From Enterobacteria phage GiZh, in sequence record NC_054903.1: a stretch of DNA of 64,000 nt; one strand, given 5' to 3'. Under the pieces are notes generated by a model. That model was not told where the DNA came from, searched no databases, and saw nothing but the letters and a program-made list of their open reading frames with translations. Positions 2,325 to 59,288 of this stretch are shown here, in pieces. Positions within the stretch are counted from its first letter, which is position 1; the number at the start of each line of letters is the position of its first letter. The translations under genes and the position numbers were made by a program.

Positions 2325-2525
2325 ATGGTACAAAAATTAATGGCACTTGTTAATGCCATCAAAGGTAATAAGAAACGTATAGCTTTTACTATTTCTGCTA
2401 TGGTAGGAATTTTACTCTGGAACTTTATTTTATCACCAATTGCAATTGCACATGGTGTTAATATTCCAGTAGTTACTCTTGATACATTTGTAGATTTAGC
2501 ATTTGCTTTAGTTGGGTTAATTTAA
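2325..2525 (+). CDS. hypothetical small hydrophobic protein (opposite strand)
   Basis: ATG 2325 preceded by AAGGAGG at optimal spacing; 66 aa, hydrophobic; only plus-strand ORF with a strong RBS in the early region. Confidence 0.3.
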   Translation: MVQKLMALVNAIKGNKKRIAFTISAMVGILLWNFILSPIAIAHGVNIPVVTLDTFVDLAFALVGLI

Positions 2526-3550
2526 ATCTTAGCATATTTAGATAACCGCATTTTAGCCATCAACCCCTGGGCAATATTATTTTTCATATATTCCATAATT
2601 TGTTCAGGGGTTGCACCTTCCTTTCTAATCATATCATTAACATCTTTTGATTTCCAGGGAGATTTATCCCAAAACATAACCCTTTCTCCTGCATCAACTA
2701 ATTTAGTCATTCGCTTAATAGTGTCAGGATGACGAGGTTCATTATCTAAGACCCACACACGCCTATCTTTAAATGGAACAACTTCTAGGTCTAATTGACC
2801 ACCCGTAATAGCTATACCATTTTCAATAAAAAGTGAATCTATAGGTCCTTCTAAAACATATACATCACCATCTTTAACTCGTTCGACTCCATATATTTTT
2901 GTTGCCTCAGGATAAGCTTTGATGGTGATATATTTTTGAGGAGCATCTTTCTTTAATGCACGTCCTTGAAAAGACTCAGCTTTTCCATTAGCATTATAAA
3001 TTGGAATAACAAGACGAGGCTCAGAAATTTCCTTTTTGTATGTTCCCGGTGCTATGCTATTAACTAATTTAGGCCATTCAGTTGTAAACCAAAGATATTT
3101 CCATTTATCCTTTGGAATACAACGAGCTTTTACATATTTTATAATTGCATGGTCTTCCGCCAGTTTATCTAATCGAACACATGACGGAAGAGATTTAATT
3201 ATTTTCTTCTCAGGTTGTTTAGGAAGTTCTTTAGGTTTTTCTACTGGACGACTTTTACCTTTTTCTTTTCTTATTTCAAAGATATACTCACGATATAAAT
3301 CAGGTTCAAACTCCTTTAAATATATTCCGATTGGTGCATGATAGTTACAGTTATAACAATGAATATTTCCTTCATTATTATCACCATAATACCATCCACG
3401 AGCTTTATTCTGGTCGGTTTTTGAATCTCCACAAACAGGACATCTAAACCGTAATTTAAAAGTTGAACTATTATTTACTTGTGTGAATTTAGGTAAATGA
3501 GCTAATGCACGGTATGCAAACTCATTATCAATCCAAGGTATTGATGACAT
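2522..3550 (-). CDS. 61: DNA primase gp61
   Basis: 342 aa; MSSIPWIDNEFAYRALAHL..., zinc ribbon CPVCG...CYNC, TOPRIM-like VLDNEPRH; ATG verified at 3550-3548. Confidence 0.9.
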   Translation of the reverse strand: MSSIPWIDNEFAYRALAHLPKFTQVNNSSTFKLRFRCPVCGDSKTDQNKARGWYYGDNNEGNIHCYNCNYHAPIGIYLKEFEPDLYREYIFEIRKEKGKSRPVEKPKELPKQPEKKIIKSLPSCVRLDKLAEDHAIIKYVKARCIPKDKWKYLWFTTEWPKLVNSIAPGTYKKEISEPRLVIPIYNANGKAESFQGRALKKDAPQKYITIKAYPEATKIYGVERVKDGDVYVLEGPIDSLFIENGIAITGGQLDLEVVPFKDRRVWVLDNEPRHPDTIKRMTKLVDAGERVMFWDKSPWKSKDVNDMIRKEGATPEQIMEYMKNNIAQGLMAKMRLSKYAKI

Positions 3551-3713
3551 TTTTACTCTTCTTTTTCTTTAGATTCCTCTTTTTTTTAGGAATCTGTTCA
3601 GGACCTTTATTTACTACAGCGCCTGATGTTGTTCCAGTAGAGATATTTTCAGGATTACCACCTGAATCTCCAGCTACCATATCTTCTTTAATAAATTCTT
3701 TATATGTTTTCAT
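3528..3713 (-). CDS. small basic protein with capsid-targeting-like N-terminus
   Basis: ATG 3713-3711 with AGAGGT RBS; N-terminus MKTYKEFIKE; C-terminal KKKRNLKKKKSKN; 23-nt out-of-frame overlap with gene 61 start. Confidence 0.5.
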   Translation of the reverse strand: MKTYKEFIKEDMVAGDSGGNPENISTGTTSGAVVNKGPEQIPKKKRNLKKKKSKNVINTLD

Positions 3714-3714
3714 A

Positions 3715-4071
3715 TTAACCTCTATTCATAAAAGCATTAAAAATTTGGTCATCAATAGATGGAATAGCAACCTTTTCGGCATCATTTAGCAAATCATTAA
3801 TTTCATCAGATAGCATAACACATGTGCCTTTATTTCCTGTAATTGTTACTGCGCAATTACGAACGTTTTCTTTATCAAATTTTAGGTTAATATTTTCGTA
3901 GTGAAAATCCTTTAATGCCGAATATATCTTTAAAATGAAATTGTCTTTTACTACAATAAACCCAACCTCACTATTAAAACGCGGTTCATGGAAACTGTAA
4001 TAAACCTTTTCATCTATAAAATCGTATGAAATTTTTTCCATTTTTAAATATGAAAATTCAGAACTATACAT
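3715..4071 (-). CDS. hypothetical protein (61.1 position)
   Basis: 118 aa; ATG verified; C-terminus SIDDQIFNAFMNRG shared with next gene. Confidence 0.55.
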   Translation of the reverse strand: MYSSEFSYLKMEKISYDFIDEKVYYSFHEPRFNSEVGFIVVKDNFILKIYSALKDFHYENINLKFDKENVRNCAVTITGNKGTCVMLSDEINDLLNDAEKVAIPSIDDQIFNAFMNRG

Positions 4072-4072
4072 A

Positions 4073-4705
4073 TTAACCTTTATTCATAAAAGCATTAAAA
4101 ATTTGATCGTCAATAGAAACTTTTACTTTAGGCTGTTCTTCAAACGGTAATTCATATCCACATATTACAATTTTGTGATCGATACCAAAATACACAGAAG
4201 CAATATTATTAATATTATTTTCAGTGAAATCTAAATCAACATCAATATCTTTTTGACTAACGCTCAAAGGATAATTAATACGAATAATTCGATTATCTTT
4301 AACAAAGATTCCACCGACATACTCTGTGCTGCGTTTAAAGTTTACACGTTTCCTAAATGAAAAATATTCAGGTTCTTTATGCGCTCGACTCATAGGGCTT
4401 AAAGTGTATTCCGAATATGAAATATCAAATCCTACACCTTCAATATGAGCCAAAGTGTCATGATTAAACCAATTATAATCGTATGCCAAATCCATTAAAT
4501 TGTAATATGTGAAAGGCACCGGATTAACATCATATGTTGTACCTTTAAAATCTGCCCAGGCAACGATTTCGTTATCTTTAACAATTACAAAAATTGTGCC
4601 AATAAGATATCCACGGTTATTTTCATCAGGTGTTATATTATAACATTGTGCATCAGGAAATTTACCGTATTTAAACGGTGGATTTTTGTGCATATAATAA
4701 ATCAT
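4073..4705 (-). CDS. hypothetical protein (61.2 position), two internal repeats of a VKDN module
   Basis: 210 aa; ATG verified; GTIFVIVKDNEIV and GGIFVKDNRIIRI modules; C-terminus SIDDQIFNAFMNKG. Confidence 0.55.
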   Translation of the reverse strand: MIYYMHKNPPFKYGKFPDAQCYNITPDENNRGYLIGTIFVIVKDNEIVAWADFKGTTYDVNPVPFTYYNLMDLAYDYNWFNHDTLAHIEGVGFDISYSEYTLSPMSRAHKEPEYFSFRKRVNFKRSTEYVGGIFVKDNRIIRINYPLSVSQKDIDVDLDFTENNINNIASVYFGIDHKIVICGYELPFEEQPKVKVSIDDQIFNAFMNKG

Positions 4706-4706
4706 A

Positions 4707-5000
4707 TTATTCGCCTGTGATTTCGGTTACGATATTTTTGTTATTAAAGTTTTTATCGCAATACAGAACATAATTATACTGCATTACACCACCAGACTTA
4801 AGCTGTTTTTGTACTTCAGCTTTCATTTCAGGACGATCGCGCTCAACGATATTCATAATATCCGCTTCAATTTGAGTTTCAACTTCAGTCTGATCTGCAG
4901 TCATAGACCATTCACACAAATCTTTATCATAGCCTGCCATAGCAGGCTGAGCAGCACAAGAAGCCAAAGTAAAAATTGTAGCAAAAATAAATTTTTTCAT
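4707..5000 (-). CDS. sp: Spackle-like periplasmic protein
   Basis: 97 aa with signal peptide MKKFIFATIFTLASCAAQPAMA; size and position between 61 and dmd as in T4. Confidence 0.75.
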   Translation of the reverse strand: MKKFIFATIFTLASCAAQPAMAGYDKDLCEWSMTADQTEVETQIEADIMNIVERDRPEMKAEVQKQLKSGGVMQYNYVLYCDKNFNNKNIVTEITGE

Positions 5001-5060
5001 GATAATCTCCTCAGTAGTTTATGTTTATATAGTATCTCAATTTCCAACAAAAGTAAACAG

Positions 5061-5318
5061 CTATTTTAAAACTTCTGCGTAATCACATGTTACAAACTGT
5101 TTCTCTAGCTTAACGATTTTACGAAAATGCCTTTTACACTGACGAATCTGCCTCTTCGTAGGACGTACAACAAACTTAATAAATTCCACTCGACCAAATG
5201 GAGGACTTTCTTCTGCTGGAATATCTAACACCAATTCCCATGTATCCGCAATAAGCGCTTTGAATTGCGTATTTTTCCTGACGTTATACGGAGTAGGTTT
5301 AAATAAAACAATATGCAT
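5061..5318 (-). CDS. hypothetical protein (61.4 position)
   Basis: 85-aa ORF, ATG verified, 2-nt gap to dmd. Confidence 0.5.
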   Translation of the reverse strand: MHIVLFKPTPYNVRKNTQFKALIADTWELVLDIPAEESPPFGRVEFIKFVVRPTKRQIRQCKRHFRKIVKLEKQFVTCDYAEVLK

Positions 5319-5319
5319 A

Positions 5320-5502
5320 TTATCCTCGGCAATCTACTTCACATACTTTCTTGTCATCAATGAAAGCTTTAACTAATGCTTTATTAACTTCAGCATATTG
5401 AGTAGTAGCCCATTGAACGTCATCTTTCATCATTGTGATTTCTTTAGTAAACATGCTTTCATTCTTAAACCACCCCATAAAAACTACCTTTACCAATTCC
5501 AT
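5320..5502 (-). CDS. dmd: Dmd antitoxin-type protein (discrimination of mRNA degradation)
   Basis: 60 aa MELVKVVFMGWFKNESMFTKEITMMKDDVQWATTQYAEVNKALVKAFIDDKKVCEVDCRG; size and position match T4 Dmd. Confidence 0.8.
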   Translation of the reverse strand: MELVKVVFMGWFKNESMFTKEITMMKDDVQWATTQYAEVNKALVKAFIDDKKVCEVDCRG

Positions 5503-5531
5503 AACAATCTCCTCATTTAACCAACAAGACT

Positions 5532-5561
5532 ACTATACCATAGTCTTGTCAGCTTGTAAAC
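5532..5561 (-). promoter_or_regulatory. T4-type early promoter upstream of dmd
   Basis: minus strand: AT-rich UP, GTTTACA, 17-nt spacer, TATAGT. Confidence 0.5.
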
Positions 5562-6988
5562 TAAAATTTTAATTCATTTGCCAAAGCATCTAACTGAGCT
5601 CGAGCGGATTCGTTTCTTTGATAGCGATTCTGTTCAGCCTGAATCTGCTGTGAACCTGCTACTTCGTTCACTTCAGTTGGAGTAGAATCTTGTTCAATTT
5701 CTACCCATTTTTGATTTCCTTTTTGAACACCCATCAAAAACTTATTCCACTTATTCTTATCACCATATCGTGATTTGATTTGCTTAATAAGTTGTTGTTC
5801 AGCAGCTGCCAACTCCTCGGTTTCAATGACCGCAAGCATAAAATCGGCTGTCGCTGGAAGACCAGCAGATTCTGCGATATCACTCATGTTAACATCAGAA
5901 GAATCCCAAGCTTGTTTACCAACCTGTGCTGCAGTCCAAAGAACAGTTTCGGTTTCAACAGCAAGAGCACGCAATTCCTCTGCAATAGCTTTAACAGTTG
6001 TGTAACTATTTTCTGAATAAACTCTAATGCGGCAAGATTTACAAATACCTAGATAGTCGACAATAATGATTGTTGGAACAAAATTCTTTTTGAGCTTCAA
6101 TTCATTCAAGAGAGACCTGAATGTGTTAGCATCTGCTCCACCAGTAGGGTACTGTTTAACGATTAAACGACCAAGAGTAGATTTCTCACGCCATTTTTCC
6201 ATTTTTCCTTTATACTCAGCGTAAGAAATATGTCCATCATCAATATCGTCAAGAGAAACATCGAGCATGTTAGCATCAATACGTTTAGCACAGACTTCTT
6301 CTGCCATTTCCATGGAAATGTAAAGAACATTATGTCCGAGCTGTAAATAATCTGCTGCCAATGAACACAATCCTAATGACTTACCAACGTTAACGCCAGC
6401 CATTAAAACGTTCAGCGTTCCAGTTTCAGCTCCGCCTTTCGTAATTTTGTTTAGAATTCTGAGTTTAAATGGAACCTTACGAGCTTTATTCATATAAGAT
6501 AGCCAACGTGCTTCGTAGTCATCCATCCAATCATGACCAACGTAGCTATCAAATGAAATTGATAATGCTTGACGCATGATGTCAGGAATAGCACCAACAT
6601 CCGGCATTTTCTTATTTCGTTTTTCCGGAGGAAGCTCAGCATTAGTTTGAATTTCGATTATTTTAGACGTAGCATTAAACATCGCCCTTTGCTGAACATA
6701 TTTTTCTGTTTCTTTTACTAACCAGCTGTGGTCTTCTGGAGAATCGGCTAGTTTTGAAATAAGTGTTTTTACACCAGAATATTCCGTTTCAGTAAATGAA
6801 CTATTTTCTAATGCAACATTTAACGCATTAATAGATGGAACGCTATGATACTCATTAACATGAGATTTAATTAATTTGAATGTATTTTTAGCTGGACCAC
6901 TTTCAAAATATTCTGAATCCATATATGGCCAAACTTTTGAAAAATAAGCTTGATCAAATATGAGATGAGAAAGAATAATTTCTACCAC
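5561..6988 (-). CDS. 41: replicative DNA helicase gp41 (DnaB-like)
   Basis: 475 aa; Walker A GVNVGKS; MVEIILSHLIFDQAYF...; apparent GTG start. Confidence 0.95.
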   Translation of the reverse strand: MVEIILSHLIFDQAYFSKVWPYMDSEYFESGPAKNTFKLIKSHVNEYHSVPSINALNVALENSSFTETEYSGVKTLISKLADSPEDHSWLVKETEKYVQQRAMFNATSKIIEIQTNAELPPEKRNKKMPDVGAIPDIMRQALSISFDSYVGHDWMDDYEARWLSYMNKARKVPFKLRILNKITKGGAETGTLNVLMAGVNVGKSLGLCSLAADYLQLGHNVLYISMEMAEEVCAKRIDANMLDVSLDDIDDGHISYAEYKGKMEKWREKSTLGRLIVKQYPTGGADANTFRSLLNELKLKKNFVPTIIIVDYLGICKSCRIRVYSENSYTTVKAIAEELRALAVETETVLWTAAQVGKQAWDSSDVNMSDIAESAGLPATADFMLAVIETEELAAAEQQLIKQIKSRYGDKNKWNKFLMGVQKGNQKWVEIEQDSTPTEVNEVAGSQQIQAEQNRYQRNESARAQLDALANELKF

Positions 6989-10173: not shown

Positions 10174-10326
10174 TTAAACCTCAATTGATGCATTCATATT
10201 TAAATTGTAACAGTAATAAACCCCACCCTATGATAAGAGTTGGAATCATAGCAGGAACTGTTACGCTATAGTATATACTTATTATAACCATCAAGATTAA
10301 AAGCAACACTGTTATAATTTTGCTTT

Positions 10327-18497: not shown

Positions 18498-18552
18498 GTT
18501 TTTCCTCCATAGAGATTATACTCTAATAAATTAAAGCATAATCTCTTATAAA

Positions 18553-20235
18553 TTAAACCATTACAGTAAATCGACCAACTTTCTTCATTTGAAGATGCTG
18601 ACCATATTCTTGCGGGTCATGGTCTTTATGCGAAATTATAAAAACATTAGTGTTTTTCATTGAATTTATAATATTAGCTACACCTTTAATACCTTCGGCA
18701 TCAAATGACCCATCAAACACTTCATCGAGTATTAACGTACTAATACTAACACCAGATACAATAGAAGCAATATCACGCCAAGTAAATAAAAGAGCAATAT
18801 CAATTCGTGCTTTTTCACCTTCACTAAATGAAGCATAACTAAAATCTTCACGACCACGGGATTTAATTGTCTCATTAAATTCTTCATCTAATGTAAACAC
18901 ATAATCCGCTTCCATTATTTTAAGATAATGGTTAATCTGCTTATTAAATAATGGAATGTACTTTTTAATAATAGCACCTTTAATACCAGAATCTTTGAGC
19001 ATATCAGTCAAAATTCCTCGGTGGTATTTTTCCATTACTAAATTAGTTTTTGTCTTAACAATTTTATCAAGTTCTTCTTGAAGCAGTGCTATTTCATCAG
19101 CATGGTCAATAAACTCAGAAGATGCTTTTTCTATAGCTGCTTTAACTTTTTTAGCTTTATCTACCGTCGTGATTAGAGATTGCTTTTTATTGCGAATATC
19201 ATTTGCCAACGACTGCTGGGTTTTAATATTATCTCGGTATTCATCAACAAGAACTTTTAAATTATCACGGTGCGTTGAAAGCTGTTCAAACGAATGCGTA
19301 CATTCAGAAACTTTATCTTTAATTTTAGAAACAACTTTATCGCCGGAACTTAATTGTGACAAACAGGTTGGACATAATCCACCTTCGTGATACATATTAA
19401 TGACTTTATTATACGAGTCAATTTTTGATTTAATTAAAACTGCTTCTTGACCGATTTTATTAAATGCATCAGTCGGGTCTTCATCTAAAACAATATTAAC
19501 TAATCTTTCGTTAGCTTCTTCTATTTCCGATTTTAACGTTCTAGCTTCTTTTGCCAAATCATCATACATATTTTGCAGACGAGTAAGGTTGTCACCAGAC
19601 AATTTTTTCTGGCGTTCAACATTATCATTATATATTTTAATTTGTTGGATAATACTATCTTTTTTAACATCAAGCACTTGGTTTTGTGAATTTAATTCAC
19701 GTATTAGTGCTTTATTAAGCTTATCCATTTCAGCTAATGTTCCTACCTCAAGCAGGTCTTCCACAAGCTTTCTTCGTGCAGGGGTCGACAAACCCATGAA
19801 AGGGGTATACCCTGCTGTACCAAGGACAACAATCTGCTTGAAACTGGCATATGACATTCCGATAAGCTGTTCAAATTCTGCTTGGAAATCTTTACTGCTG
19901 GCAGATTCATTAAGACGTGTACCGTTAACGGTGATTTCGAAAACGTTCGGTTTTTGTCCTCTTTTGATATAGTACTTTTTCTCATCATATTCCATCCACA
20001 ATTCAACTAAAAGTTCTTTCTTATTTGTGCTGTTTATTAATTGACCTTTCTTTACATCACGAAATGGCTTGCCAAAAAGCCCAAATGTGATGGCTTCTAA
20101 CATAGTAGACTTACCACCGCCATTTCGTCCAGTAATAAGAGTTTTTTGAACCTTATCTAATTGAATGTCAATAGGATTTCCACCTACTGACATTATATTT
20201 TGATACCTAACTCGGTTTAGTTTAAAATTCTTCAC
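18553..20235 (-). CDS. 46: recombination endonuclease subunit gp46 (Rad50/SbcC-like ATPase)
   Basis: 560 aa; Walker A GRNGGGKST, coiled-coil middle with CPTC zinc hook, signature and Walker B near C-terminus; apparent GTG start. Confidence 0.95.
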   Translation of the reverse strand: MKNFKLNRVRYQNIMSVGGNPIDIQLDKVQKTLITGRNGGGKSTMLEAITFGLFGKPFRDVKKGQLINSTNKKELLVELWMEYDEKKYYIKRGQKPNVFEITVNGTRLNESASSKDFQAEFEQLIGMSYASFKQIVVLGTAGYTPFMGLSTPARRKLVEDLLEVGTLAEMDKLNKALIRELNSQNQVLDVKKDSIIQQIKIYNDNVERQKKLSGDNLTRLQNMYDDLAKEARTLKSEIEEANERLVNIVLDEDPTDAFNKIGQEAVLIKSKIDSYNKVINMYHEGGLCPTCLSQLSSGDKVVSKIKDKVSECTHSFEQLSTHRDNLKVLVDEYRDNIKTQQSLANDIRNKKQSLITTVDKAKKVKAAIEKASSEFIDHADEIALLQEELDKIVKTKTNLVMEKYHRGILTDMLKDSGIKGAIIKKYIPLFNKQINHYLKIMEADYVFTLDEEFNETIKSRGREDFSYASFSEGEKARIDIALLFTWRDIASIVSGVSISTLILDEVFDGSFDAEGIKGVANIINSMKNTNVFIISHKDHDPQEYGQHLQMKKVGRFTVMV

Positions 20236-23702: not shown

Positions 23703-23727
23703 ATTTTACCAAAAATTTATAAAGCAA
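23703..23727 (-). promoter_or_regulatory. candidate MotA-dependent middle promoter for a-gt
   Basis: minus strand TTGCTTTA box, ~11 nt, TAAAAT, about 25 nt upstream of a-gt ATG. Confidence 0.4.
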
Positions 23728-59239: not shown

Positions 59240-59288
59240 GTGTTTCTCCTCAAATTTAATTAAGATTATAACACACAAAACTGAAGCA

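Follow-up and report, generated by a model that had tools for sequence, protein, structure and literature searches.

The DNA analyzed here, called the window, is a stretch of 64,000 nucleotides of Enterobacteria phage GiZh (NC_054903.1). The source phage is T4-like and belongs to the genus Tequatrovirus; the region from 3400 to 5600 is 98.9% identical to Shigella phage SHBML-50-1 and has matches in hundreds of Tequatrovirus records. An island of small genes (dmd, tifA, sp, and adfA) sits there between helicase gene 41 and primase gene 61 (Table 1), and the adfA region has been termed a possible anti-TA island by Srikant et al. (PMC9391042). Two adjoining genes, coding for proteins of 210 and 118 aa, are located 3' of sp and 5' of 61.1 and 61, a position established by comparing the gene order with those of T4, T2, slur13, AugustSocin, AV122, and VR25. 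The original prediction had proposed a comparison with T4 61.1, but the 118-aa gene is not 61.1, whose true homologue is the 61-aa ORF that follows it. An Rfam search of positions 3000 to 6000 gave no matches, no terminator-like site was found from dmd to gene 61 (3300 to 5700), and a perfect 15-nt inverted repeat within adfA is not conserved among other alleles.

Table 1. Features of the adfA locus, with positions in the 64,000-nucleotide window; residue ranges of predicted strands (E) and helices (H) are those of the respective protein
Feature	Position	Strand	Remarks
Gene 41 helicase	5561-6988	minus	
dmd	5320-5502	minus	Pfam Dmd
tifA/61.4	5061-5318	minus	Pfam DUF7279
sp	4707-5000	minus	Pfam T4_Spackle
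adfA (T4 gene 61.2; anti-DarT factor A), 210 aa	4073-4705	minus	Pfam PF23813, phrog_3781
N-module hairpin GTIFVIVKDNEIV, AdfA residues 36-48	4562-4600	minus	strands E38-43 and E46-51, turn D-N
C-module hairpin GGIFVKDNRII, AdfA residues 131-141	4283-4315	minus	strands E127-136 and E139-145
AdfA codon 167 (Asn)	4205-4207	minus	equivalent to RB69 AdfA R164 and to a His in T4, by alignment numbering
Repeat copy 1 (direct repeat family D1)	4069-4117	minus	AdfA tail codons S-I-D-D-Q-I-F-N-A-F-M-N-K-G, TAA, one base, ATG of the short gene
Second P61-like motif, in the AdfA tail	4070-4097	minus	MotA box 4097-4088, -10 TAATAT 4075-4070; pattern match
Short single-domain AdfA paralog, 118 aa	3715-4071	minus	partial PF23813 match, phrog_4122
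Short-protein hairpin GFIVVKDNFIL, residues 37-47	3931-3963	minus	strands E34-42 and E45-51
Repeat copy 2	3711-3759	minus	short-gene tail codons ending M-N-R-G, TAA, one base, ATG of the 61.1 homologue
P61 orthologue	3712-3739	minus	MotA box TAATGCTTTT 3739-3730 (codons N-A-F), 12-bp spacer, -10 TAATAT 3717-3712
T4 61.1 homologue, 61 aa	3528-3713	minus	phrog_1823 (E 2e-32), T4 locus
Gene 61 primase	2522-3550	minus	
Predicted elements, short protein			E8-17, E22-29, E34-42, E45-51, E57-64, H67-78
Predicted elements, AdfA N-half			E2-11, E19-25, E38-43, E46-51, E57-64, H67-76
Predicted elements, AdfA C-half			E100-104, E114-120, E127-136, E139-145, E152-159, H162-173

The 210-aa protein covers the whole Pfam profile of AdfA, PF23813 (positions 1 to 211, E value of 3.2e-139, 461.7 bits against a gathering threshold of 27 bits), is 73% identical to T4 gp61.2, and fits the two-module architecture of ca. 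208 to 216 aa, which the 118-aa protein does not. By homology, the gene is adfA. AdfA is described as a small protein that neutralizes the DNA ADP-ribosyltransferase toxin DarT1 by binding to it, and its activity can be switched by one substitution, R164H in RB69 AdfA; T4 adfA provided in trans was sufficient yet not necessary (PMC11257639). It is among the few known phage inhibitors of DarTG defense. The equivalent of RB69 R164 maps to the first helix of the C-terminal (C) module and is occupied by His in most relatives and by Arg in RB69-type proteins. In the window, both proteins have an Asn there (Asn167 in AdfA and Asn72 in the 118-aa protein), so that neither carries the His equivalent to the DarT1-neutralizing allele.

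The 118-aa protein scores above the gathering threshold of the same profile (34.1 bits), with a match restricted to profile positions 113 to 211. Full-length BLASTP between the two proteins gave 38% identity over 106 aa (E value of 9e-12), and the short one aligned to residues 111 to 210 of AdfA, i.e., to its C-terminal half, whether its tail was kept or removed. The adjacent genes had originally been proposed to be paralogs, and removal of the tails confirmed that the similarity is neither tail-only nor insignificant, because it extends beyond the tail: BLASTP still gave an E value of 2e-4, and the Smith-Waterman score was 65, against 29 ± 5.5 in shuffled sequences, a value reached in none of 2,000 shuffles. 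Identity of the bodies without the tail is ca. 34% in the alignable core (23/67) or ca. 29% (27/92) when the full-length alignment minus the tail is counted. We therefore regard the 118-aa gene, on the strength of these alignments, as a single-domain gene that is an old paralog of the C-terminal module of AdfA, and since its product lacks the N-terminal module, we have filed it as an architectural variant of the AdfA family.

Both genes are found together in the window, slur13, AugustSocin, and AV122, and the short gene accompanies adfA in every close relative of the window-type adfA. In T4, 61.2 (208 aa) is directly followed by 61.1 (54 aa) without any 118-aa gene, and T2 lacks adfA and has the 118-aa gene, annotated as "61.2." There are thus three states of the locus, represented by T4 (adfA only), T2 (short gene only), and the window (both). 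In the phage collection, full-length adfA was present in ca. 485 records and the short gene, at 80% identity or more, in ca. 290; ca. 136 records matched AdfA only at <60% identity, and those that were sampled were short-gene-only phages. T2 had been counted as lacking an adfA homologue in published surveys (PMC11257639). In the literature covered, T2 and T4 become DarTG1-sensitive only upon the loss of adfN, and for this reason a role of the short protein against that particular DarT1 seems unlikely.

Since the two genes adjoin and have their 3' DNA in common, and T4 can dispense with the short one, the latter might be taken for a recent partial tandem copy of adfA, or for a gene in decay, and in either case for one that has no separate function. 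We find this scarcely credible. The tail-less bodies are too different for a recent copy (only ca. 29 to 34% identity to the AdfA C-half), intact orthologues exist not only in the ca. 290 phage records but also in Gaprivervirus, at 45 to 50% identity, and there are further, more divergent forms of 120 to 125 aa. Besides, the short protein has a confident predicted fold (pLDDT of ca. 90 for residues 11 to 100), and T2-type phages have retained its gene and lost adfA. The "local duplication" of the original prediction consequently holds as an ancient event and fails as a recent one: with bodies this diverged and with orthologues in Gaprivervirus, the near-identical 3' DNA is not the relic of a recent copy. 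From the sequence comparisons described below, three factors appear to account for it instead: selection that acts on the peptide, a promoter and Shine-Dalgarno (SD) sequence embedded in the DNA, and recombination of one copy with the other. The possibility that T2-type phages retain a remnant of adfA ahead of the short gene was also considered and rejected; homology begins at AdfA residue 111, and the longer extent suggested by tblastn could not be upheld.

A six-frame translation of the window contains the tetrapeptide VKDN at three places, all of them inside these two genes. In the predicted structures, it forms the end of one strand and the D-N turn of a hairpin, and in the family alignment, it is invariant at the C-module hairpin of AdfA. 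The AlphaFold models had pLDDT values of 82.5 overall for the short protein and 71 for AdfA. The short protein is predicted to consist of five strands, a helix, a strand, and a helix, and both halves of AdfA have the same predicted order of strands and helix (Table 1). The models thus suggest a module made of a five-stranded sheet followed by a helix, with VKDN as a hairpin turn. The count given in the original prediction, two copies of the VKDN module in the 210-aa protein and one in the 118-aa protein, was correct, and AdfA is probably made up of two such modules, with a profile comparison (HHalign) of its two halves giving a P value of 3.4e-4 (38% probability) and a single-sequence shuffle test giving a P value of ca. 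0.07. MAFFT placed the N terminus of the short protein onto AdfA helix 65-78, an alignment that was judged spurious because this stretch of the short protein is predicted to be a strand.

The C-terminal peptides of the two proteins, SIDDQIFNAFMNRG and SIDDQIFNAFMNKG, were confirmed in both ORFs, in agreement with the identical ends first noticed. We gathered 49 such tails from the window, annotated phages, viral contigs, and metagenomes. The core DDQIFNAFM was invariant in all 49, across three architectures (AdfA, the short form, and a 145-aa form of Gaprivervirus), within the consensus [S/A][I/V]DDQIFNAFM[N/K][R/K][G/D]. Synonymous variation affected seven of the nine core codons (GAT/GAC twice, CAA/CAG, ATT/ATA, AAT/AAC, GCT/GCC/GCA, and TTT/TTC) and 10 of the 14 codons of the tail. 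When the short forms were aligned with AdfA, nine of the 14 invariant columns were the nine residues of the tail core. By inspection, the tail resembles a capped amphipathic helix, with an N-terminal Ser-x-Asp-Asp cap, a hydrophobic face (I, I, F, F, and M), and a final Gly. Both AlphaFold models predict it as helical at low confidence (pLDDT of ca. 50 to 58), which may come from the shallow alignment of 18 sequences. It is preceded by a linker, likewise of low confidence, in which indels reach 7 residues.

When viral, bacterial-genome, and metagenome collections were scanned with degenerate DNA patterns, the AdfA family was the only one to have the motif at the C terminus. All other matches were internal or in unrelated frames, and host mimicry or portability of the tail was discarded; given its occurrence on the AdfA family only, the tail is not a portable tag beyond it. 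Being a short helix, acidic and aromatic, that sits at the C terminus on a flexible linker, the tail would nevertheless fit a targeting tag of some known class (gp45 clamp binding, SSB-tail-like, membrane helix, or protease tag) that takes the proteins to the replisome or some other machine, and as DarT acts on single-stranded DNA, localization to the fork would make sense. Such a tag seems highly improbable here. The gp45 clamp-binding motif, S-L-D-F-L-[F/Y], is absent from the tail, where SIDDQIFNAFMN has D and Q in place of F and L, and the gp43 (SLDFLFG) and gp55 tails encoded in the window differ from that of the family. There is no net positive charge, unlike in membrane helices of the MinD or FtsA type, and the exact-motif scans gave the tail at the C terminus of the AdfA family only.

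The tail could, on the other hand, be an integral part of the structure that packs on its own sheet or forms a dimer or hetero-oligomer interface, rather than a site for an external partner. The amphipathic character of the helix, whose positions i, i+4, i+5, i+8, and i+9 are hydrophobic (I, I, F, F, and M), and its helical prediction in both models would fit, and so would an N-to-K change in the tail that is common to both paralogs of the VR25 clade, as expected of tails that contact each other or coevolve. Still, we consider this doubtful. The tail is invariant while the bodies fall below 20% identity (in the 120-aa form P0029 and the 145-aa form), and an unchanged tail is hard to reconcile with packing on a surface that changes as the bodies diverge to this extent. 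The length of the linker varies, and AlphaFold gave no confident placement of the helix on the body. The shared interaction or targeting tag of the original prediction agrees with a capped amphipathic helix that is invariant and follows a variable linker, and a role of the tail as an interaction element is plausible; the interpretation given there is, on the whole, partly supported.

At the DNA level, the ca. 40 nucleotides originally reported to be shared by the two 3' ends turned out to be a direct repeat of 49 nt, with 46/49 identical positions and a longest exact run of 25 nt, whose copies are 358 nt apart. A 24-nt core of the repeat was present at these two places only in the window, with none expected from shuffled sequences. 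The short-gene copy is base-identical, over both tail and junction, to the adfA tail/61.1 junction of T4. In all 49 tails, the stop codon is followed by one base and an ATG, and inspection revealed a GAGG or AAGG in the final two codons, at SD distance from the next ATG.

This is also the place of a known promoter, which the original prediction missed. Table 1 of PMC2988021, with data from Marshall, Sharma, and Hinton (1999), lists the T4 MotA/AsiA-dependent middle promoter P61 with a start site at 19122, and the middle-promoter consensus is given as (a/t)(a/t)(a/t)TGCTTtA, 12 ± 1 bp before a -10 element, TAnnnT (PMC2988021). Position 19122 of T4 corresponds to the A within ATGAAAACA, where 61.1 starts, 7 nt downstream of a TAATAT located at -12 to -7, and TAATGCTTTT is found 12 bp further upstream, in the N-A-F codons. 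Both copies in the window have the same arrangement of TAATGCTTTT, 12 bp, and TAATAT, with nine of the 10 box positions fitting the consensus (the last A is a T). The -10 element is made of the stop codon, one base, and the AT of the next ATG, so that the ATG of the 61.1 homologue sits within the -10 element of P61. For the copy at 3711-3759, which corresponds to the mapped T4 start, transcription is predicted to begin at ca. 3705. The copy in the AdfA tail is a second, predicted promoter, without a mapped counterpart; its three base differences are all outside the box and the -10 element, and the predicted start (ca. 4063) falls within the 5' end of the short gene. The window contains 24 matches to the pattern TGCTTYW-N11-13-TANNNT, where 5 would be expected; most of them are on the coding strand, and they include both tails. 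In the record of phage Lutter, a 27-nt "promoter," AATGCTTTTATGAATA[A/G]AGGTTAATAT, is annotated at both gene ends. As read from the sequence, the tail DNA carries a peptide, a middle promoter, an SD sequence, and a stop/start junction at once, a clear case of overlapping codes in which the mapped middle promoter of the primase gene is inside an invariant protein tail. As the tail and P61 are in the same DNA, deletion of the adfA tail would also remove P61, and recoding is constrained.

Since the last nine codons and the junction contain all three elements of a mapped promoter (MotA box, spacer, and -10 element), and since the tail DNA is nearly invariant within Tequatrovirus, the peptide might be a mere passenger, conserved only because of the DNA signals (P61, SD, and stop/start junction). 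The variation among tails makes this highly unlikely. There was not a single amino acid change in the 49 DDQIFNAFM cores, in spite of seven of nine codons varying synonymously, and the codons for DDQI are upstream of any known middle-promoter element. Moreover, GCC and GCA codons alter the TGCTT core of the MotA box, and TGA or TAG stops convert the -10 element into TGATAT or TAGTAT; since these tails keep the peptide unchanged throughout, constraint on the promoter alone cannot explain it.

The repeat also marks the ends of the variable segment of the locus. When T4 and slur13 were compared, two aligned blocks overlapped by exactly the 49-nt repeat, and the 358-bp difference between them corresponded to a short-gene cassette. 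AV122 has an adfA body of the T4 type with tail DNA identical to that of the window adfA tail. In T2, the bases from the original sp stop to the ATG of the short gene read TTAGAGGTTAGT, which looks like a remnant of the end of a tail, AGAGGTTAAT.

Between genera, the bodies of the short-gene orthologues are more alike than those of the paralogs. The tails behave differently: paralogous tails within Tequatrovirus are identical at 39.6 of 42 positions, versus 35/42 for short-gene orthologues between genera. In Gaprivervirus, the two tails of UPEC01 are 40/42 identical, with 37 consecutive bases in common, and those of VR25 are 35/42 identical. Three of the VR25 differences are synonymous and located inside the 37-base stretch of UPEC01, where every UPEC01 state makes the copies alike. 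These patterns are signs of gene conversion between tails, as far as the aligned sequences allow. Only a few sites underlie the signal, part of which could be due to codon usage specific to each genus.

More members belong to the family than had been assumed. Nevertheless, when 1.84 billion representative proteins were searched exhaustively with a profile, only 10 matched, all of them from T-even phages, to which the family is restricted. Among the short forms, P0026 (125 aa) and P0029 (120 aa) have very different bodies, 42 and 32% identical to the window short protein, respectively. In gapriverviruses such as VR25 and UPEC01, a 145-aa protein is encoded after sp, followed by a short form of 117 to 119 aa, with the same tail on both. 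The body of the 145-aa protein had no Pfam match, and the protein makes up a separate PHROG family (8539). It weakly resembles the short protein/C module (HHalign P value of 8.6e-4; Foldseek E value of 2.7e-4, TM score of 0.57), and Foldseek connects the short form with both AdfA and the 145-aa protein of VR25. An interpretation of the latter as an AdfA N-half plus tail was rejected (HHalign P value of 0.21 against the N-half). The single-domain and 145-aa forms are thereby added to the family, and T2, which had been said to lack adfA, possesses the short form.

The explanation that we consider likely as a whole is that the locus contains AdfA and an old short paralog, that both end in an invariant tail helix, that the tail DNA carries P61, and that the repeat recombines. 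Recombination between the repeat copies would remove or add the 358-bp short-gene cassette and would at the same time hold the copies nearly identical, while the P61 copy after the short gene would serve the primase gene. For the proteins, we tentatively suggest, as one possibility, that the variable sheet domain chooses the target and that the invariant tail acts as a constant partner-binding or inhibitory helix. A more speculative and rather unlikely extension is that the AdfA superfamily is a modular anti-toxin platform, in which a fast-evolving sheet domain, occurring once or twice per protein, selects the host toxin, and the invariant helix is the constant working part, either a plug for a conserved site on DarT-like toxins or a handle for a conserved phage or host factor. 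The mobile unit would then be a dual-coded cassette, with the last codons of each gene also being the promoter and ribosome-binding site of the next gene. If true, the short protein (the sole family member in T2) and the 145-aa protein would be new counter-defense factors. In any case, the invariant tethered helix is an obvious first target for mutagenesis or structural work on toxin neutralization. While adfA and P61 were already known, the papers covered describe neither the two relatives (single-domain and 145-aa) nor the invariant helix on its tether, the overlap with P61, or the repeat-mediated cassette, and they likewise do not mention P61 as part of an invariant coding tail.

The closest known system is AdfA itself (T4 gp61.2 and its RB69 counterpart; PF23813), of which the 210-aa protein is a full member, in the same place after sp and with the same tail. 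For the 118-aa protein, the match is to the C-terminal half, including the helix with the R164H position; unlike AdfA, it has no N-terminal module and belongs to a PHROG family of its own (4122). AdfB (ICP1 Gp145), Dmd, and TifA are likewise small early proteins that neutralize, by binding, the toxins of toxin-antitoxin defense systems. Two of them, Dmd and TifA, come from the same island, and specificity is switched by single residues across AdfB, Dmd, TifA, and AdfA. However, AdfB, Dmd, and TifA have no sequence or fold relationship to AdfA, and for none of them has a conserved C-terminal helix common to paralogs been reported. With regard to T4 P61, the short-gene copy shares the MotA box, the 12-bp spacer, the -10 TAATAT, and the downstream bases; the window differs in having two copies 358 bp apart, of which the upstream one would initiate inside the short gene. 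The repeat recalls the PeSLs (PMC2839356 and PMC4122927), mobile cassettes behind the modular shuffling of T4-type phages, in which a short conserved regulatory sequence at gene boundaries also provides the homology through which small accessory genes are inserted, deleted, or replaced. A PeSL combines an early promoter with a stem-loop terminator, whereas the repeat has a middle promoter, has no stem-loop terminator, and is within the coding sequence, so that the exchanged unit carries the protein tail with it. To judge from its sequence, the repeat would act like a PeSL, as a recombination joint, without being one, and the locus would illustrate how small counter-defense genes are gained and lost through recombination at a repeat that is both coding and regulatory.

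The tail, i.e., the invariant C-terminal helix (core DDQIFNAFM) common to AdfA, its 118-aa single-domain paralog (the short protein) and a 145-aa Gaprivervirus protein, appears to lie next to different sequences in other genomes. In the Gaprivervirus-like metagenome contig OBRI01000039.1 (positions 1100-1540 of our locus L040), the 145-aa protein precedes a 122-aa short form whose N-terminus is different (MYIQSDLSYLNF...), and the gene 3' of the short-form tail also differs, a further sign that the tail junction connects varied neighbours. At the T2 locus (L002, 2440-2503), the original stop of sp is followed by TTAGAGGTTAGT, which looks like the final bases of a deleted adfA tail, and then by the ATG of the short gene, the start of which is set in the T2 record at Met11 and not at Met1. 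T2 sp itself appears to carry a frameshift close to its 3' end; it is annotated as 92 aa with NNHR* as terminal residues. A protein from Yersinia phage fPS-65 (BFVD A0A449C4E3, 157 aa) matched the model of the short protein with 30% identity (Foldseek E value of 5e-6), and may represent a fourth architecture or else a truncated adfA.

Within adfA, residue 167 is Asn, an allele also seen in P0006 (a cluster with 94 members) and in several metagenome contigs; DarT1-neutralising alleles have His at this position, and RB69 has Arg. The gene contains a perfect 15-nt inverted repeat, with arms separated by 323 nt, that is confined to window-type alleles. It is disrupted in T4-type and RB69-type adfA, with no compensating changes in either, and is probably due to chance.

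Features in and around the adfA region and examples of promoter-like sites
Feature	Position	Strand	Details
Primase gene 61	2522-3550
61.1 homologue	3528-3713		61 aa (54 aa in T4)
AdfA residue 167	4205-4207
Inverted repeat in adfA	4159-4173 and 4497-4511		CACATATTACAATTT / AAATTGTAATATGTG
Sigma-70-like site	5532-5560	minus	TTTACA, 17 bp, TATAGT, upstream TG
Middle-promoter pattern (examples)	2288-2311, 10281-10305, 18513-18538, 23703-23726, 59263-59288

Downstream of the short gene, the 61.1 homologue overlaps the start of the primase gene by 23 nt. The mapped start site of P61, a T4 middle promoter, is located at the third codon of this homologue and, therefore, the full 61.1 protein cannot be translated from P61 transcripts. 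The middle-promoter pattern (TGCTTYW-N11-13-TANNNT) has 24 matches in the whole window, mostly on the minus strand, versus 5 expected, and the examples in the table probably have their orthologues among the other T4 middle promoters that have been mapped. The top-scoring sigma-70-like site of the region is immediately upstream of dmd, which fits the early promoter reported as driving dmd-tifA in T4.
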